This document shows positions 12,999-64,000 of a stretch of DNA of 64,000 nucleotides, in pieces (positions within the stretch are counted from its first letter, which is position 1; every line of letters begins with the position of its first letter). Origin of the DNA: Candidatus Eiseniibacteriota bacterium. GTDB lineage: Bacteria > Eisenbacteria > RBG-16-71-46 > JABDJR01. The stretch lies in NCBI GenBank assembly GCA_963762255.1, contig CAVXKA010000001.1:544001-608000 (forward strand), in the 5' to 3' direction. The notes beneath the pieces are model-generated. The model did not search any database. It worked only from the letters and a program-made list of their open reading frames with translations, and was not told the DNA's origin. A program made the position numbers and the translations under genes.

Positions 12999-13379
12999 TG
13001 GTCCTTCCCGGGGGCAATCGTCAGCACAACTCAATCGGCAACTCCATGTCTGTAAAAGCCTTGAAACCCCTCTGGGCACGGACAGGATTGTGAAATCCTC
13101 CGCTCCGCGACGGGTCTGCTCCCATGCCTGAGCTGCGCTCCATGGACAATGGGTCCATGTAGGAGCCAGAAGCATGCCACGACACCCCAACCCCTGTCTT
13201 GAGTGGCGCGGCGGGGCGCGCGGGCGACGTGCGGAGCGCGCAGGCGAGCCGCAGAGTGTTTGAGCGGTCCCAATCCGATCTGATTTGCAACACTCACTGC
13301 CAAAAGGGCAAGAGTGGGCCCATTCGGTACTCGGTGTTTCAACTTGAAACCAGGCCGTTCAGCAGGGTAATTGCCTAAT

Positions 13380-13392
13380 TATTAAAACGTTA
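13380..13392 (+). promoter_or_regulatory. IHF-like binding site
   Basis: TATTAAAACGTTA, one mismatch to WATCAANNNNTTR, in an AT-rich patch about 30 bp upstream of the sigma54-like promoter. Confidence 0.4.
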
Positions 13393-13422
13393 CGGATTCA
13401 CTTTGCCTGGTATGATGCCCTG

Positions 13423-13437
13423 TGGCATCCTGATTGC
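13423..13437 (+). promoter_or_regulatory. sigma54 (-24/-12)-type promoter for groESL
   Basis: TGGCATC-CTGA-TTGC has exact GG-N10-GC spacing. Confidence 0.6.
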
Positions 13438-13595
13438 CTTCTAGTAATGGCGAAGGGTGGCAGACCGCCCGGTGAGTTTGCCCATCTGGCACGGTCCGAT
13501 CGCCACCGTCATCCGGTTATCATCCCGGGCCGCTCGCGAGTGGCAGGGTTGGATCACAAACCGTTATTTCCCAAACTCAGTAAAGGAGTGAGACC

Positions 13596-13883: not shown

Positions 13884-15647
<1,764 letters not shown>

Positions 15648-56700: not shown

Positions 56701-58749
<2,049 letters not shown>

Positions 58750-58875
58750 GTTTCGAGTGGGCACAATCGTCACCCGTGGGCTGTCGTAGCTTCCACGTCA
58801 GTCCGGGCGGGTCTATATGTGTTTGAAATCAATGGGTTTCGGGGGCCGGGACGTTCAAACCCGCCTGCGCGAGCG

Positions 58876-59622
58876 TCAATCCCAGAGTTGCTTCAGTCTT
58901 CCCCATGTCGTGCCTTCCACCGGCGTCGCGCGTTGCACGGAAGCACGTCCGTCATTTGTATCGAAGGCGATGACCACTCGATCGTCGGCCTGCGTATTCT
59001 CGAAGCTGAAGTTGTCCCCGATAAGCATGTTGTAGTGCGGGCCGAAGGACCAGTCCCAGCTCCCGACGGATCGGAACTTGTACTCGACCGTACCGACGTC
59101 GGCAAGATTCATTTGAGCGCTCCAGACGCCGTCTTGCATCGTGGCCACGATCGGCAACGTCCAGGAACCAAGCTCGGGCGCACTTCCCATGAGCTCCAGG
59201 CTCGTCCCGACCGGTAATCCATGGTCGGTCATGATCGCCCCGGATTCCGGCTGCCAACCAGAACGGGGGTTTGCATCGAGCCGAAAGAAGACGGCCTCCC
59301 CGGCAGATACCGTGACAAGCCGGGCGTTCTGAAGCACGTATTCGGGATTGTGTGGCCACAACTGCGACCAGTCCGCGTTAGCGATCTTGAATTCATGGAG
59401 TCCAGGCGGCTGATCCGAGGTGATCGTCGCCGCATAAATGCCGTCTCCCCCTACTCCATCCCCATGCACGCCGTCATCATAGAGCCGGTTACCTGCGTCA
59501 TAGCCCCAGGTCGCGCCGGACCCCGCGTAATAGGAACCGCGCGCATAGTAAGGTTGAGCGACTGCCGACTGGGCCATGAGGCAACACACCGCCAAGAACA
59601 CCACGACCCCGATCCGTGTCAT
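58876..59622 (-). CDS. secreted protein with a DDG-rich motif and CBM20-like domain; C-terminal TWG tail
   Basis: GAGGAGG RBS; signal peptide; LYDDGVHGDGVGGDGIY; GSAPELGSW..GVWS..VEYKF; ends TPVEGTTWGRLKQLWD. Confidence 0.78.
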   Translation of the reverse strand: MTRIGVVVFLAVCCLMAQSAVAQPYYARGSYYAGSGATWGYDAGNRLYDDGVHGDGVGGDGIYAATITSDQPPGLHEFKIANADWSQLWPHNPEYVLQNARLVTVSAGEAVFFRLDANPRSGWQPESGAIMTDHGLPVGTSLELMGSAPELGSWTLPIVATMQDGVWSAQMNLADVGTVEYKFRSVGSWDWSFGPHYNMLIGDNFSFENTQADDRVVIAFDTNDGRASVQRATPVEGTTWGRLKQLWD

Positions 59623-59705
59623 CTTGCCTCCTCGATTGGCCGGACACCGCCGACGACAGCTACTTCACGAACTGCTGCTTCAGATTGCCCCGGGGGGGGG
59701 ATTCG

Positions 59706-59960
59706 CTACTTCACGACCTTCACCGGTAGCCCACCGTACGGGACATCAACCACCCTCACGTCCAGCGTAGTCCGCTCCCATGACCACTCCGCGCCCTTCA
59801 CTTCCAGCGGCGGAAGGTCAGAGGCAAGGCCGACCAAACGCACATCCATCGGGTCCTTCGCCGACTGCGCATCTGCAGTCTGTTGCCCCAGGTGGAACCC
59901 GATCAGCAGCGTCAGCGAAAGGAAGAACAGAGAGCCGGAGAGGTAGAACAGGCGCTTCAT
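59706..59960 (-). CDS. small exported hypothetical protein
   Basis: GGAGG RBS; signal-like N-terminus MKRLFYLSGSLFFLSLTLLIG. Confidence 0.7.
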   Translation of the reverse strand: MKRLFYLSGSLFFLSLTLLIGFHLGQQTADAQSAKDPMDVRLVGLASDLPPLEVKGAEWSWERTTLDVRVVDVPYGGLPVKVVK

Positions 59961-59970
59961 CCAAGACCTC

Positions 59971-60624
59971 CTACTTGCCGAACTGCTGCTTCACCACGCC
60001 CCATGTACTCTTCATCACGGGGACGATGCCTTCTCCGCTTAAGGTCACCACTCCGAATTCAGTCGGCTTCAACGCGACGCTGCCACTTGAGGGTTTTTCG
60101 GCACTGTTAAACGTCGCAAGGGTAAGTCGAAACGCATTGCCATCCGATGTGAATTCATGGATGCGAAAGTCAAATTCGCAGCCGAGTTCCGGAAACCGCA
60201 CCCCGTAATAGTAGTCGGGCGATTCATAGCAGCTGTACGAGGATGGGATGGGCCACCGGCCACTGGAGTAGCCGATCGACTCTATGCGCAGTATGTCCCT
60301 GCGCGTCTCAGGCTCAATGTCCATAATGCGGATGCTGGCGGAATCCAACGTGACCAAGGAGAAGCGAACGTTCAGAAATGAAACAACAAAAGGCAATCCA
60401 GGTTGGCAGCTTGGGTGCTGGACGCGGGTGTTGAATTCCAGGGACACGGGTCCCTGGTAGTAGATCCCCCTCGCCTTGTCGTCAAGACAGCTGGGCGCCG
60501 CGTAGAAGTCAATGGACGCAAACGCTTGACCAGAGAAGGTCGCGCCCCTGAGCTCAACCGCAGCGTCGGCCGTCCGCGGGATGGTGAATGTGGCAAGGCA
60601 GAGTACAAGCAGCAGTCTCAGCAT
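59971..60624 (-). CDS. secreted hypothetical protein with C-terminal TWG tail
   Basis: GGAGG RBS; signal MLRLLLVLCLATFTIPRTADA; ends VPVMKSTWGVVKQQFGK. Confidence 0.75.
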   Translation of the reverse strand: MLRLLLVLCLATFTIPRTADAAVELRGATFSGQAFASIDFYAAPSCLDDKARGIYYQGPVSLEFNTRVQHPSCQPGLPFVVSFLNVRFSLVTLDSASIRIMDIEPETRRDILRIESIGYSSGRWPIPSSYSCYESPDYYYGVRFPELGCEFDFRIHEFTSDGNAFRLTLATFNSAEKPSSGSVALKPTEFGVVTLSGEGIVPVMKSTWGVVKQQFGK

Positions 60625-60766
60625 TGGCCGCCTCCGAGGAGGCATGGGGTGAAGACATCTTAGCACCGGGCGCAAGCCGCTCGGCTGCGTGTGCGCGTTC
60701 AATGGCGGCGGACAATTTTTCACGGCGGACCTACAGCGCTACACGCAGAGCCTGACTCTCGAACTG

Positions 60767-60916
60767 GTCACGGCACCGTGATCGCGTCCCTGCCGTAGGC
60801 CCCGGCGGCAGGGCGAGGTGAGTTTCGAGCGAGCACAATCGTCACCCGTGGGCTGTCATAGCTTCCACGGCAGTCCGGGTGCCCGTATATCTCTTTGAAA
60901 TCAATGGGTTTCGGGG
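60767..60916. repeat. 150-bp direct repeat, copy 2
   Basis: Matches copy 1; hairpins TCACGG/CCGTGA and CCCTGCCG/CGGCAGGG; IHF-like AATCAATGGGTTT. Confidence 0.95.
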
Positions 60917-61078
60917 ATCGCGTCTTCCGAAATAATCGTCCCCAGGCTGCGATAGTGCCCACTCGAAGGGTGGTTTTCGAATGGATAGGAATTATGCGTT
61001 GCCCCCCCTGGATCAGGCCCGGAGGGGACGGCGACGGGGGATTGCCGAACCAGTACAATCCGGCGTATACGCTTAGCC

Positions 61079-62650
61079 TCAGATTCGATGGGGGCTGATT
61101 TCCATCCCAGATACCAAACGGAAACTCTCGAGGGCGTATTCGTCCGTCATCCCACTTATGAAATCAATGATCATTCGAAGGCGATGTACCCTTTCCATGA
61201 CCTCAGCCATTCCCTCGTCCCTGCCCGCGTCCTTAGCCGAAAGCCGCACGGCTGCGTCGTATACCGCCAAGTACTTTCTGGAGACGCGACTGAGAAGACT
61301 AGTCTCCAGGGCGATCGGAGCGCCCATCGAATCCTTGTCCTCTTTGGCGCGGATACTCCCGAATCGAGATGCGTCACACTGCATGATTGGCTGATACGCA
61401 GACAACAATCCGCTGAGAACAGCGTATGCGGTAATCTCCCTCCGTCGAACAATCTCCGCAGAGTACAAGTGCTGCTCTGCAAACCGCTTCAATTCACTCA
61501 GCAGCTTCCCCGCATCCCCGTCTCTAAGTATCGGCCCTGCCTCGCCACTAAGGACCGCTGCCTGCTTCACCACAAACACCAAACCTGCTTGATGTGCTAG
61601 AAACCGAATGACAGCAGAGCGAAACTCCTCCATTGGTCTGAGTCTCTCTCCACCTGGCGCCGCGCCAGAATGGGGATCCTTCAGAGACTGCAAGGCAGAA
61701 GCGATGCGCTTCGCTTCATTTCCGATCTCCTCACCAGCCTCACCGAAGTTCATTCCCCCCGCGACGCCCTCAATGAACTGGGCGAACGCTGCCTTTGTGA
61801 CGATGCCCTTCTCTATGCCATCCTCGATGTCGCTTACACAGTAAGCGATGTCATCCGCCGCCTCCATGAGATAGGCGAGTGGATGTCTGCATCCGTTCTT
61901 AAGTCCAAGCTCTTTCCATATTTGGCGTGCTACATCCTGTTCCGTCTGAAAATATCCCGACTTCTTCCTCCCGCATCCGCCTCCACTGCTATCCCCAATC
62001 TCCGAAGTAGACCATGGGTATTTCAGAGTAGAAGCAAGCGTCGTTATGGTCAAGTTCAGGCCGAAGCGATCACTCGTCTCCGCCGCCTGCAGCCTCGTAA
62101 TGATTCTGAACCCCTGGGGGTTTCCATCGAAGTTCTCAAAATCAGCCTGAAACACATTCCATCGTCTCAGGGCCGGCCCACCGAGGCCATCCGGCGCTAG
62201 ATTGCAAATGCTCTGATGAAACCAATCGTTGATCGCACGCTCACCAAAGTGCCCGAAGGGGGGGTTACCGAAATCGTGAAGCAAGCAGGCAGTTGAGACG
62301 AATGTAATGAAGGCTCGCTCATTCCCGGCAATGCCCAGCTCCTTCTTTTGCCGCCCTGAAAAATGCTTCAACGCTTGTTGAGCAACGAACTGCCCAATTG
62401 AAGACACCTCCAAGGAATGGGTGAGCCTTGATCTGACTGCCGCATTTGTCTCTAGCGAGAAGACCTGAGCCTTGTTCTGAAGCCGCCGAAATGGCGATGA
62501 GAAGAGAACGCGGCCACGATCGGCGTCGGCGTTCTCGTCGAGTGTCCGCTTCACGACTTCGGGCCTTCGAAGGCGAGTGCCCTGGAGTAACCGCTCATAG
62601 GGTCGAGGTGTTGAGGCCGCGGTAGCTTTCCTTGCCCCCTTCCTATTCAC
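61079..62650 (-). CDS. dgt: dGTP triphosphohydrolase (HD-domain dNTPase)
   Basis: DRGRVLFSSPFRRLQNKAQVF, RSRLTHSLEV, LLHDFGNPPFGHFGE, FDGNPQGFR, LKYP, LMEAADDIAY, DFISGMTD. Confidence 0.93.
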   Translation of the reverse strand: MNRKGARKATAASTPRPYERLLQGTRLRRPEVVKRTLDENADADRGRVLFSSPFRRLQNKAQVFSLETNAAVRSRLTHSLEVSSIGQFVAQQALKHFSGRQKKELGIAGNERAFITFVSTACLLHDFGNPPFGHFGERAINDWFHQSICNLAPDGLGGPALRRWNVFQADFENFDGNPQGFRIITRLQAAETSDRFGLNLTITTLASTLKYPWSTSEIGDSSGGGCGRKKSGYFQTEQDVARQIWKELGLKNGCRHPLAYLMEAADDIAYCVSDIEDGIEKGIVTKAAFAQFIEGVAGGMNFGEAGEEIGNEAKRIASALQSLKDPHSGAAPGGERLRPMEEFRSAVIRFLAHQAGLVFVVKQAAVLSGEAGPILRDGDAGKLLSELKRFAEQHLYSAEIVRRREITAYAVLSGLLSAYQPIMQCDASRFGSIRAKEDKDSMGAPIALETSLLSRVSRKYLAVYDAAVRLSAKDAGRDEGMAEVMERVHRLRMIIDFISGMTDEYALESFRLVSGMEISPHRI

Positions 62651-63522
62651 GCCACATTCCTGTCATCGCGAGAGGGGATCGTGCGTACACGGGATTCTCT
62701 GCGTGAATCGAGAAGAAGATCCAATCTGTTCAGGAGCTCCTCCCGTCCCTGCGGAAATCTCGCGTGAAGAAAGTCCCATTCTACCTGAAGCAGTCCTGGC
62801 ACGACATTCTCTCGCAGCCGACAACAATCGGCATCGGGGACGACCAGCTGTGGAGTGTCTTCTAGAATCCGGACGAGACGTACTGCCAGGACGGCCAACT
62901 CGACGGGTGGCATCTCGTTCCATCGGGGCCAGTTGATTCCGGGGTCACGTTGTTCGCGTCTTTGCAGTACACCAAACGGATCGAGGACACACCCGGTCCC
63001 CAAATGAACCGCGAGCGCATTGATTCGTAGGTCAAAGTAACGAAGTGCTCCCGAAACCGATCGAAATCCCTTGTGGAACGTGGAGGGCTCAGAAATGTCT
63101 ATGTAGCCATCTTCGTAATGATAGCAACGTTGCTGGTGTCGGTTCAGTTCGAATGGCAAACCAAGAGCATCCAGAGCTTTGAATGCCCGGACATCTCCGT
63201 TCGGTACCATGACATCTATGTCGCCAGAATCTCCGAGTTGAAACAATGCTCTGCGGTGGGTACCGCCGACCACATAGGCACGTCCATTTGTAGCGTGAGT
63301 GATGGCGCGAATGACCTCGCGGGTCCTGTGACGCTCTTGTAGCCGCCTCATGAGTTCGCGATACAAGACCGCATGCGGTTCGTCAGGCTGACGCGCATTG
63401 CGCGTTGGCCGCGTGATCGTCCCAACCATTCCTGTGGGCGTCAATCGCAACCAAGAGGGCGGCCGCCACGCACGGACGCCGAGCAGATCACCGGCCGATA
63501 GAGCCATCGAGTGTTTCTTCAT
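62647..63522 (-). CDS. class II (CCA-adding/poly(A) polymerase head-like) nucleotidyltransferase, divergent
   Basis: AYVVGGTHR..GDIDVMV, ID, FDLRINALA (cf. RDFTINAL), LDPFG; stop overlaps the dGTPase start; start codon uncertain. Confidence 0.72.
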   Translation of the reverse strand: MKKHSMALSAGDLLGVRAWRPPSWLRLTPTGMVGTITRPTRNARQPDEPHAVLYRELMRRLQERHRTREVIRAITHATNGRAYVVGGTHRRALFQLGDSGDIDVMVPNGDVRAFKALDALGLPFELNRHQQRCYHYEDGYIDISEPSTFHKGFRSVSGALRYFDLRINALAVHLGTGCVLDPFGVLQRREQRDPGINWPRWNEMPPVELAVLAVRLVRILEDTPQLVVPDADCCRLRENVVPGLLQVEWDFLHARFPQGREELLNRLDLLLDSRRESRVRTIPSRDDRNVA

Positions 63523-63951
63523 GCCAGCAACACCATTAGTGGTCTTGTCATTTTAAGACGGCTTGTCACTCATGAGTATACCCCACACAGGCTACCGAGA
63601 TGTACTAGCGCAGGGCAATGTAATTCGGACCAGCCCGAGTGAGCGGACCGTAGACGGACCGGTCGCTGTCACTGGGTGGCCATTACCGCACGCTACCCTT
63701 TGATTGTAGCGGTCCGACACTTGCTTCTCGATTCCTACTTGGCTGTGCTGCTCTGTACTTGGCGCCAGGAATCTGGTCCTCCGGCGCCATTACCATTGAA
63801 ACGTGCCGGGTCATCCGGAGATCTCCGCGATGACTTCCCCGGCGGTCCATGTGGAAGTTCACCGCCGTAGGCTTGGCTCCCAGCTTCGGGGGTCGGCTCC
63901 CCTTGAACCCGTGCCGCCCCGGCTCCCCAATGGGGTCTGGAGGTTCAAGTT

Positions 63952-64000
63952 ATGCCCTACCTATCGTCCCCGACCCTGACGAAAGCCGAACAGGAAGCCC
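63952..64000 (+). CDS. 5' end of a gene, possibly a tyrosine recombinase/integrase
   Basis: GGAGG RBS, then MPYLSSPTLTKAEQEA; the LT..EQ opening resembles the start of a catalytic-domain-only tyrosine recombinase; only 16 codons visible. Confidence 0.4.
   Translation, partial: MPYLSSPTLTKAEQEA

Follow-up and report, generated by a model that had tools for sequence, protein, structure and literature searches.

A coupled gene pair in a low-GC island

The window analysed here is a stretch of 64,000 nt on contig CAVXKA010000001.1 of a Candidatus Eiseniibacteriota bacterium, and all positions refer to the whole of it. Two genes encode a short nucleotidyltransferase (NTase), the upstream member of the pair, and a dGTP triphosphohydrolase (dGTPase), the downstream member (Table 1). 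An earlier reading of this DNA from its letters alone (hereafter the sequence-only reading) had pointed to an overlap of stop and start codons; it is real, spans 4 nt and suggests translational coupling, and AGGA stands 8-11 nt upstream of the GTG start of the dGTPase. Both ORFs are more than chance: conserved homologues exist and the pairing recurs. A scan for promoters and terminators found sites no more numerous than in shuffled sequences.

Table 1. Features of the gene pair and its surroundings in the 64,000-nt window
Feature	Position	Strand	Basis
NTase, putative short class II (CCA/PAP-fold) nucleotidyltransferase	62647-63522	minus	ORF, 291 aa
Putative dGTP triphosphohydrolase of the E. 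coli Dgt lineage, GTG start	61079-62650	minus	ORF, 523 aa; NCBIfam and PADLOC matches
GTGA, common to NTase stop and dGTPase start	62647-62650	minus	sequence; presumed translational coupling
Dispersed genomic repeat, one copy just downstream of the dGTPase gene	60767-60931	plus	165-nt direct repeat, 87% identical to 58695-58859
Low-GC island, left part	58700-64000		GC 0.53-0.63 vs 0.65-0.71; extends about 6 kb beyond the window end

The pair is foreign and stands in a mobile context. Its GC content is clearly below that of the host, as had been claimed (0.555 vs 0.670 for positions 1-58600 of the window), and its GC3 is 0.57-0.60 vs 0.86-0.89 in two host genes. Past the window end, the island carries three integrase fragments, a CapP-like M78 peptidase (match at 1.1e-28), a type III MTase-like ORF and an HTH-Ser/Thr kinase, which is PD-T4-6/mad6-like and split into two overlapping ORFs. 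The company of these genes in one island speaks for a defence reading.

The sequence-only reading had further called the island repeat-bounded. The low-GC island stands, the bounding by repeats does not. Both copies of the 165-nt direct repeat flank two neighbouring genes for secreted proteins and not the pair; 13 further copies or fragments occur on two contigs of the genome, and the repeat has no match in Rfam. We therefore rejected att-like repeats as bounds of the pair, the repeat being a dispersed genomic family. The sole match that does bracket the pair is weak (71 nt, 73%; window 61011-61081 and positions 10233-10303 of L007, past the window end).

Two putative enzymes

The conserved core of the NTase covers approximately residues 50-275. 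Because the first ~45 residues show no conservation, translation may begin further in, at the ATG of M32 or M58. The motifs named by the sequence-only reading (GG..R, DxD, DxxINA and RYFD in place of RRD) are found as GGTHRR (86-91), DID (101-103) and LRYFDLRINA (160-169). All 17 relatives have G86, G87, R90, D101, D103 and D164 without variation, and the triad D101, D103, D142 conforms to the pattern [D/E]h[D/E]...h[D/E]h, with D or E at the site of D142 in all 17. With these catalytic residues intact, the enzyme looks active. At positions 162-164, the canonical RRD is replaced by [YF]FD in 16 of 17 relatives and by YVD in one. RRD had been called the templating motif, which is a mislabelling: in class II CCA enzymes it forms motif B, whose role is to read the ribose, and another motif templates the base.

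A class II CCA/PAP fold had been predicted, and both the AF2 model (pLDDT 82, residues 1-41 below 50) and the sequence family favour it. Foldseek places the model closest to solved tRNA CCA-adding enzymes and poly(A) polymerases, with E ~1e-6 for CCA-adding enzymes. PF01743 matches 6 of 17 relatives (E up to 0.01), and no match to it was obtained in the window NTase at E up to 1. The likeness to PF01743 enzymes extends to the head and neck fold and to motif A; unlike them, the NTase ends after the neck, lacking the tRNA-binding body and tail domains, and carries the altered motif B. The model aligns only to the first ~210-260 residues of enzymes of 350-440 aa, and the Foldseek targets as a whole, 344-517 aa long, are covered in their first part only. 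Because body and tail are absent and the same genome has two canonical PF01743 genes at other sites, the NTase is probably not a CCA enzyme, in agreement with the doubt raised earlier about a housekeeping CCA role. Neither NCBIfam nor PADLOC holds a family that names it. The NTase family is very rare: 16 relatives, 42-51% identical, were found among 5.8 billion proteins. Its first tier comprises 34 representatives at E up to 1e-30.

The dGTPase retains the metal-binding and catalytic residues H78, H125, D126, H134 and E137. In the alignment they correspond to H69, H117, D118, H126 and E129 of CloA, the dGTPase of the Clover system, so that the HD motif and HE dyad are kept and the enzyme appears catalytically intact. 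It scores 304.5 bits on TIGR01353 and 410.5 bits on NF003429, the latter a marginal pass over the cut-off of 405. Full-length partner dGTPases of related pairs score similarly on NF003429 (410.3, 411.2, 404.1 and 417.0; 3 of 4 over the cut-off).

With E. coli Dgt, a housekeeping enzyme, the dGTPase shares full-length alignment (PDB 4x9e; likewise 7w1f), the DRGR motif, a length of ~500 aa, a long C-terminal domain and the score just over the equivalog cut-off. E. coli Dgt is a hexamer and is stimulated by single-stranded DNA bound between its subunits (4x9e entry). Unlike housekeeping Dgt, of which a syntenic Enterobacter representative reaches 867.6 bits on NF003429, the window dGTPase belongs to a separate clade, comes with a coupled NTase in every case and is foreign to the host genome. 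TIGR01353 has no other match in this genome, which is 93.6% complete, so the dGTPase could also be in housekeeping service.

Linkage and distribution of the pair

Absence of linkage between NTase homologues and dGTPases had been named beforehand as a refuting outcome, and it did not occur. In 5 of 5 loci of other genomes, an NTase homologue is followed by a directly adjoining dGTPase (54-59% identity), which makes the order NTase-then-dGTPase common to 6 of 6 loci. The junction varies: L001 has the same 4-nt overlap as the window, the ORFs of L003 overlap by up to 23 nt, and gaps of 12 and 19 nt separate those of L004 and L005. Moreover, a 767-aa database protein fuses an NTase (residues 5-243) to a dGTPase (259-759); its cluster has 1 member, and the fusion might have been produced by faulty assembly or a frameshift.

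Seven NTase-linked dGTPases form one clade with support of 100/100 in a 15-row tree, apart from both the syntenic Enterobacter Dgt and CloA. The partner dGTPases thus group away from a housekeeping Dgt; grouping with it would have refuted the sequence-only reading by its own terms. Taken together, the sequences point to obligate linkage and co-divergence of the two genes. The predicted complex of the dGTPase with the NTase core (residues 45-291) scored 0.00, which gives no answer either way.

The genes flanking the pair change from one examined locus to the next; in the five other genomes they are ordinary metabolic genes and not defence genes, an observation that speaks against a defence reading. 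The hosts of these five loci are Acidobacteriota, each of them with a second, short dGTPase (5/5).

Of 206 genomes from the phylum of the window, one has the NTase; three other matches there are weak and lie in ORFs of 542-592 aa. In a sample of 401 Acidobacteriota genomes, it occurs in the centre genome alone. Beyond that genome, profile A3 detected just long CCA-type ORFs in 23 genomes, at no more than 61 bits, whereas the first-tier NTase scores 110.7. One unpublished genome, G362, is counted among the 24/401 and bears on no other result. In searches of mobile and environmental DNA for the gene context of a bridging family of ~235-aa NTases (see below), profile A3 and query P0054 gave no match in metagenome contigs, and profiles A1 and A3 none in viral contigs. 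Searches of plasmids by tblastn with P0054, P0055 and P0068 returned nothing, or one uninformative Miltoncostaea match. The three plasmid dGTPase loci that were opened (H19, H20, H39) contain no NTase partner.

Presumed function and relation to known systems

The sequence-only reading described Clover as a dGTPase joined to a signal-making NTase, and rightly so according to the preprint by Yamaguchi et al. (10.1101/2025.07.09.663793). There, the NTase CloB produces a free dinucleotide, p3diT, a dedicated inhibitor that holds the dGTPase effector CloA in check; the NTase is the brake. As reference we used the E. coli operon between flhB and cheZ of NZ_AP022161.1 (L043), whose dGTPase matches Salmonella CloA (PDB 9p8s) full-length at 637 bits and whose 250-aa partner has D61/D63, the CloB residues mutated in that work.

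The window NTase appears to be only a remote relative of CloB. BLASTP between the two gives E 0.44. Compared by hhalign, the families align with 95.2% probability and E 2.6e-8, over 120 columns of the head only. A bridging family of ~235-aa NTases matches both families full-length (E 2.4e-48 and 4e-17), and an 87-row tree, made by quick search and having long branches, sets the short NTases apart from canonical CCA/PAP enzymes with SH-aLRT 96. Plain HMM scores put CloB no nearer to the window NTase family than canonical CCA/PAP heads. The window-family HMM (A1) yields medians of 20.1 bits for CloB and 13.6 for CCA enzymes with a maximum of 29.0 in both, and the bridging-family HMM (A2) yields 47.5 and 62.0, the CCA set having been pre-selected as best A2 matches. 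A search with the A2 profile aimed at CloB was swamped by canonical CCA/PAP enzymes.

As for the dGTPase, it is not CloA-type. Its match to 9p8s/9p8t amounts to 175 bits and covers residues 41-294 only. The p3diT contacts of CloA include T25, R29, R34, D37, R38, F41, N75, N181, Q311 and R314 (10.1101/2025.07.09.663793; residue numbers in the PDB chain exceed those of the paper by 2, as fixed with 8 anchor residues). T25, R29, Q311 and R314 fall outside the alignment. Half of the six alignable contacts are kept (R38, F41 and N181 as R47, F50 and N199) and half are replaced (R34 by A43, D37 by G46, N75 by S84), D37 and N75 being base-reading residues. Because thymine-reading residues of the pocket are replaced, a signal different from p3diT is expected. 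The same source describes CloA as an octamer with a dTTP activator site (Y452, T449) in its C-terminal bundle; the C-terminal halves of CloA and the window dGTPase do not align.

We suggest that the most likely identity of the pair is that of a distant Clover variant, and not of a wholly new kind of anti-phage system. In our view it is rather probable that the pair serves defence by depleting nucleotides in the manner of Clover, with the dGTPase restrained or gated by what the NTase makes, and with a signal that is possibly not p3diT. The sequence-only reading had left the choice between a Clover-like and a new system; its CCA/PAP fold, its dGTPase linkage and its separate dGTPase clade hold, whereas homology to CloB appears remote and the dGTPase is not of CloA type. 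In the proposed model, the horizontally acquired two-gene cassette would deplete nucleotides. The downstream Dgt-lineage dGTPase would be the effector, destroying dGTP and starving replicating phage DNA. The upstream small class II NTase, having lost its tRNA-binding body, would make a short (deoxy)nucleotide signal. Bound allosterically, this signal would keep the dGTPase off in uninfected cells, until a phage-driven change of the dNTP pool overrides the brake. We infer the defence role, a free nucleotide signal as the NTase product, inhibition rather than activation and the identity of the signal.

The logic might also be the opposite: the NTase could be a sensor that responds to infection with an activating signal, or with a short oligo-dN, and so turns the Dgt-type dGTPase on, in the manner of CBASS. 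We consider this unlikely, though the likeliest of the alternatives. It would suit a dGTPase related to E. coli Dgt, given the ssDNA stimulation of that enzyme (4x9e), the loss of the p3diT-reading residues, and a gene order with the NTase first in contrast to CloA-then-CloB in E. coli. However, no sensor domain is apparent in the sequence, and a constitutively co-translated NTase suits a constitutive product. In the sole characterised relatives, those of Clover, moreover, the NTase acts as a brake.

Less probable, and distinctly unlikely on the whole, is housekeeping control of the dNTP pool by the organism's own Dgt and a regulatory partner. The single TIGR01353 match, the passed NF003429 cut-off and the metabolic neighbours in other genomes would all be compatible with it. 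They must be weighed against the rarity of the NTase in the phylum, the foreign GC3, the location within an island of integrase fragments and defence-type genes, the second short dGTPase in every Acidobacteriota host and a clade separate from the syntenic Enterobacter Dgt (867.6 bits vs ~410).

Slightly less likely still is an NTase that makes no free signal but has a macromolecular target, nucleotidylating the dGTPase or tagging RNA or tRNA 3' ends in the role of a toxin or co-effector. Absence of the tRNA-holding body and tail, replacement of RRD in motif B, and CloB itself, the nearest characterised relative and a maker of a free dinucleotide, all argue against this, even if the closest solved folds do act on tRNA or RNA ends as CCA-adding enzymes and poly(A) polymerases and a natural NTase-dGTPase fusion would suit modification in cis. 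Finally, a decaying remnant of a degraded mobile element, its function lost, would fit the integrase fragments and the split kinase, but is very improbable for two full-length ORFs with all catalytic residues and the same 4-nt coupling as in L001.

Returning to the Clover-like module, we tentatively go one step further. The pair might represent a second lineage of Clover-type immunity, in which a CloB-like NTase controls a Dgt-lineage dGTPase through a product other than p3diT; we hold this to be possible rather than probable. This product may be a short oligo(deoxy)nucleotide, acting at the effector site between subunits that is known from E. coli Dgt. If this is true, then control of dNTPases by nucleotide signals arose or diversified repeatedly, with different signals, and the NTase-dGTPase fusions would join signal maker and effector in proteins able to work in cis. 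A working pair would widen the range of dNTPase-plus-signal systems, offer a second signal-receptor pair to set against p3diT-CloA and give the classical Dgt fold of E. coli type a direct link with regulated immunity. If the signal is p3diT after all, the pair is simply a remote Clover member.

Among known systems, stand-alone anti-phage dGTPases (Tal et al.; Shewanella PDB 9p8w; NF041026) belong to the same HD dGTPase family, and the PADLOC dGTPase model matches the window protein at 3.2e-69. Unlike them, the window dGTPase has an NTase partner, scores 176.8 bits on NF041026 vs a cut-off of 400 and matches 9p8w over residues 30-142 only. For another system of a dGTPase and a CCA-type NTase, our literature search returned only the Clover preprint and reviews; the present family may be among the ~650 CloB homologues in the Clover supplement. 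Clover and the window-type pair are both tightly coupled two-gene operons on foreign, low-GC inserts, and both combine an HD dGTPase with a ~250-aa NTase of the Pol-beta superfamily that has the [D/E]h[D/E]...h[D/E]h pattern, the window NTase being a truncated class II enzyme (GGxxR[DR]...DxD). They differ in that identity between the window dGTPase and E. coli CloA is 35% and confined to the N-terminal 310 residues, and in that the best NCBIfam model is NF003429 for the former but NF002205 for the latter. The hosts of the window-type pair, Acidobacteriota and one other phylum, are outside the groups listed in the paper (10.1101/2025.07.09.663793), and the pair extends to soil phyla beyond those reported for Clover. 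The pair presents the architecture of Clover built from another dGTPase lineage and a very divergent NTase, with the two genes in reverse order and the ligand pocket altered.

The two-gene unit and its distribution

In the gene pair under study, the TGA stop of the nucleotidyltransferase (NTase) gene and the GTG start of the dGTPase gene share the sequence GTGA at 62647-62650, and AGGA lies a few bases upstream of this GTG. GC content of the pair is 0.555, compared with 0.670 in window positions 1-58600, and its GC3 is 0.57-0.60 versus 0.86-0.89 in two nearby host genes. Given the open reading frames, the shared GTGA and the low GC and GC3, the core of the sequence-only reading (two genes with overlapping stop and start, lower in GC than the host) holds.

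The same reading staked its proposal on linkage of NTase homologues to dGTPases, which was found in all five loci from other genomes. When 185,579 species were scanned, each through a single genome, these five NTase loci emerged, all in Acidobacteriota MAGs. In 5 of 5, the NTase gene precedes a same-strand dGTPase gene whose product is 54-59% identical to the window dGTPase; the junctions are a 4-nt overlap, overlaps of ORFs, or gaps of 12-19 nt. Flanking genes are unlike in every locus (GH57, LptF/G, peptidase S9, xanthine dehydrogenase); the unit is two genes, NTase and dGTPase. A 767-aa database protein fuses NTase (5-243) with Dgt-type dGTPase (259-759); since its cluster has a single member, the fusion is possibly an artefact. 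The seven NTase-linked dGTPases form one clade (support 100/100) in a 15-row tree, which gives separation of the clade and not branching order among lineages. This clade stands apart from syntenic Enterobacter Dgt and Arcobacter plasmid Dgt, as well as from E. coli CloA and short dGTPases. By profile, one genome among the 206 from the phylum of the window has the NTase family, and three more weak matches there fall within 542-592-aa ORFs; in a 401-genome Acidobacteriota sample the family occurs in the centre genome only.

Genomic surroundings

Judged by composition, the low-GC island with the pair extends from ~58700 to ~6 kb past the window end. The pair, located there among defence and mobile genes, fits acquisition by horizontal transfer.

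Features of the pair and its island; L007 is the locus of the window genome (G000:C1) that reaches past the window end
Feature	Coordinates	Strand	Remarks
NTase ORF	window 62647-63522	minus	291 aa; upstream gene of pair
dGTPase ORF	window 61079-62650	minus	523 aa; downstream gene of pair
Dispersed intergenic repeat	window 58695-58859, 60767-61013		~150-190 nt
Two ~250-aa ORFs	window 58876-59622, 59971-60723	minus	between two repeat copies
CapP-like M78 peptidase	within L007 10309-12815		~0.3-2.8 kb past window end; PADLOC capP 1.1e-28
CapH-like HTH fused to Ser/Thr kinase	L007 11224-12504, 12306-12815		PD-T4-6/mad6 type; adjoins CapP-like peptidase
Tyrosine-recombinase (phage integrase) fragments, n=3	L007 9953-10378, ~13273-13528, ~14589-14896
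486-aa ORF	L007 13558-15018		weak Cthe_2314-like HEPN match, E 0.0018; no PADLOC match
479-aa ORF, type III methyltransferase-like	L007 15490-16929		model match 2.8e-21

The HTH-Ser/Thr kinase is divided into two overlapping ORFs and may thus be frameshifted. The integrase fragments are 72-88% identical among themselves at DNA level and point to mobile elements that have inserted into the island more than once or are decaying there; the 486-aa and 479-aa ORFs are further defence-type genes within it. Both ~250-aa ORFs have signal-peptide-like N-termini and low GC; one has a weak match to the starch-binding CBM_20, the other matches nothing in Pfam (E<=0.01) or PADLOC.

The repeats previously supposed to bound the island turned out to belong to a dispersed family, of which the genome contains 13 further copies or fragments. 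Copies are 79-91% identical among themselves, and each contains ~18-nt inverted arms (e.g. 60823-60841 and 60950-60967). Rfam gave no match for the repeat, which does not clearly fold more stably than shuffled sequences do (z of the folding energy -1.9, -0.5); a MITE-like element and an unknown RNA are both candidate identities.

Properties of the two proteins and possible function

The window NTase belongs to no Pfam, NCBIfam or PADLOC family (DNA_pol_B_palm is sub-threshold, E 0.087) and matches nothing in PDB by sequence. Among 5.8 billion clustered proteins it has 16 relatives at 42-51% identity; a library of 1.84 billion representatives contains 205 matches at E<=1e-3, 85 at <=1e-10 and 34 at <=1e-30. 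In the 17-row alignment G86, G87, R90, D101, D103 and D164 are invariant, 17/17 have D or E at the third carboxylate (D142), a DPGINWPRW block is present, and the first ~45 residues lack conservation. The AlphaFold2 model (pLDDT 82.4; residues 1-41 disordered) matches class II CCA-adding enzymes and bacterial poly(A) polymerase (E ~1e-6, TM 0.41-0.56) in the head and neck of these 344-517-aa enzymes, and PF01743 is matched by 6/17 relatives. A housekeeping CCA enzyme is ruled out, as had been anticipated, because motif B reads [YF]FD versus RRD in CCA enzymes, their body and tail are missing, and two canonical PF01743 genes exist elsewhere in the genome.

The dGTPase matches TIGR01353 (304.5 bits) and the PADLOC dGTPase model (3.2e-69), its best family being NF003429, the E. 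coli-type Dgt equivalog (410.5 bits, cut-off 405). It aligns over full length with PDB 7w1f and E. coli Dgt 4x9e and, by alignment, keeps the metal/catalytic residues H78, H125, D126, H134 and E137. The five Acidobacteriota hosts each also have a separate short dGTPase (380-440 aa), whereas the window genome has the NTase-linked one only.

We suggest that the pair fits a Clover-like module, in which a dGTPase effector would be controlled by a small nucleotide from its partner NTase; brake as opposed to activator, NTase product and defence role are all three what we infer. Activator logic in the same pair is an unlikely reading, the least so among the rivals. Somewhat less probable is housekeeping control of dNTPs, in favour of which the window dGTPase is the sole TIGR01353 match in its genome (4.1 Mb, 93.6% complete). 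Modification of a macromolecule by the NTase we consider slightly more doubtful still, and a decaying remnant very improbable.

Comparison with Clover

In the literature searched, a dGTPase-NTase system is described only in the Clover preprint (Yamaguchi et al., 10.1101/2025.07.09.663793) and reviews. According to the preprint, CloA is a dTTP-activated dGTPase, CloB produces the inhibitory dinucleotide p3diT, and CloB mutants are toxic. E. coli genomes were searched with the K-12 flhB-cheZ junction as query, and its unbroken form is missing in 113 of 5,387 matching genomes. One of these (NZ_AP022161.1) was examined: here the gene of a 502-aa dGTPase precedes that of a hypothetical protein of 250 aa. 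As the dGTPase matches Salmonella CloA (9p8s) over full length (637 bits) and the hypothetical protein contains GGMVRD as well as D61/D63, of which the two aspartates are the residues mutated in 10.1101/2025.07.09.663793, this operon is taken as a bona fide Clover copy. Since the single examined broken junction holds it, flhB-cheZ may be a recurrent Clover insertion site in E. coli.

With E. coli CloA, the window dGTPase shares 35% identity, and this in the N-terminal 310 residues only; with Salmonella CloA (9p8s-9p8v) residues 41-294 alone align. For E. coli CloA the best family is NF002205 (356.7), its NF003429 score being just 270.4, whereas the window dGTPase and four full-length partners reach 404-417 with NF003429. 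By partial alignment, NF003429 instead of NF002205, and its separate clade, the window dGTPase falls outside CloA.

Against CloB, the window NTase reaches only E 0.44 in BLASTP; a profile of 29 enterobacterial CloB proteins matches the window NTase family at 95.2% (E 2.6e-8) in 120 head columns. A bridging family of ~235-aa NTases (35 sequences) aligns over full length with both the window family (E 2.4e-48, 220 columns) and CloB (E 4e-17, 197 columns). By plain HMM scores, CloB is no closer to the window family than canonical CCA/PAP heads are. In a quick 87-row tree, with long branches and a biased CCA sample, all short NTases lie on one side of the branch from CCA/PAP (SH-aLRT 96), CloB groups with one bridging member, and the window family is nested among the others. 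The 237-aa protein P0094, which joins CloB in the NTase tree and matches the enterobacterial CloB profile (56 bits, E 1.6e-16 at -Z 1000, a nominal 1,000-sequence space), is a useful bridge from CloB to the wider ~235-aa family. The window family may already be catalogued among the ~650 CloB homologues of the Clover study.

Gene order differs as well, with CloA then CloB in E. coli versus NTase then dGTPase in 6/6 window-family loci. Among the six alignable p3diT contacts described in the preprint, R38, F41 and N181 are kept in the window dGTPase, whereas R34, D37 and N75 of CloA correspond to A43, G46 and S84; both alignable thymine-reading residues are among those replaced. With the pocket so altered, a signal other than p3diT is plausible. 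As the dGTPase falls outside CloA and the CloB comparison is indecisive, we would not file the pair as a Clover member and propose it as a variant to be set beside Clover.
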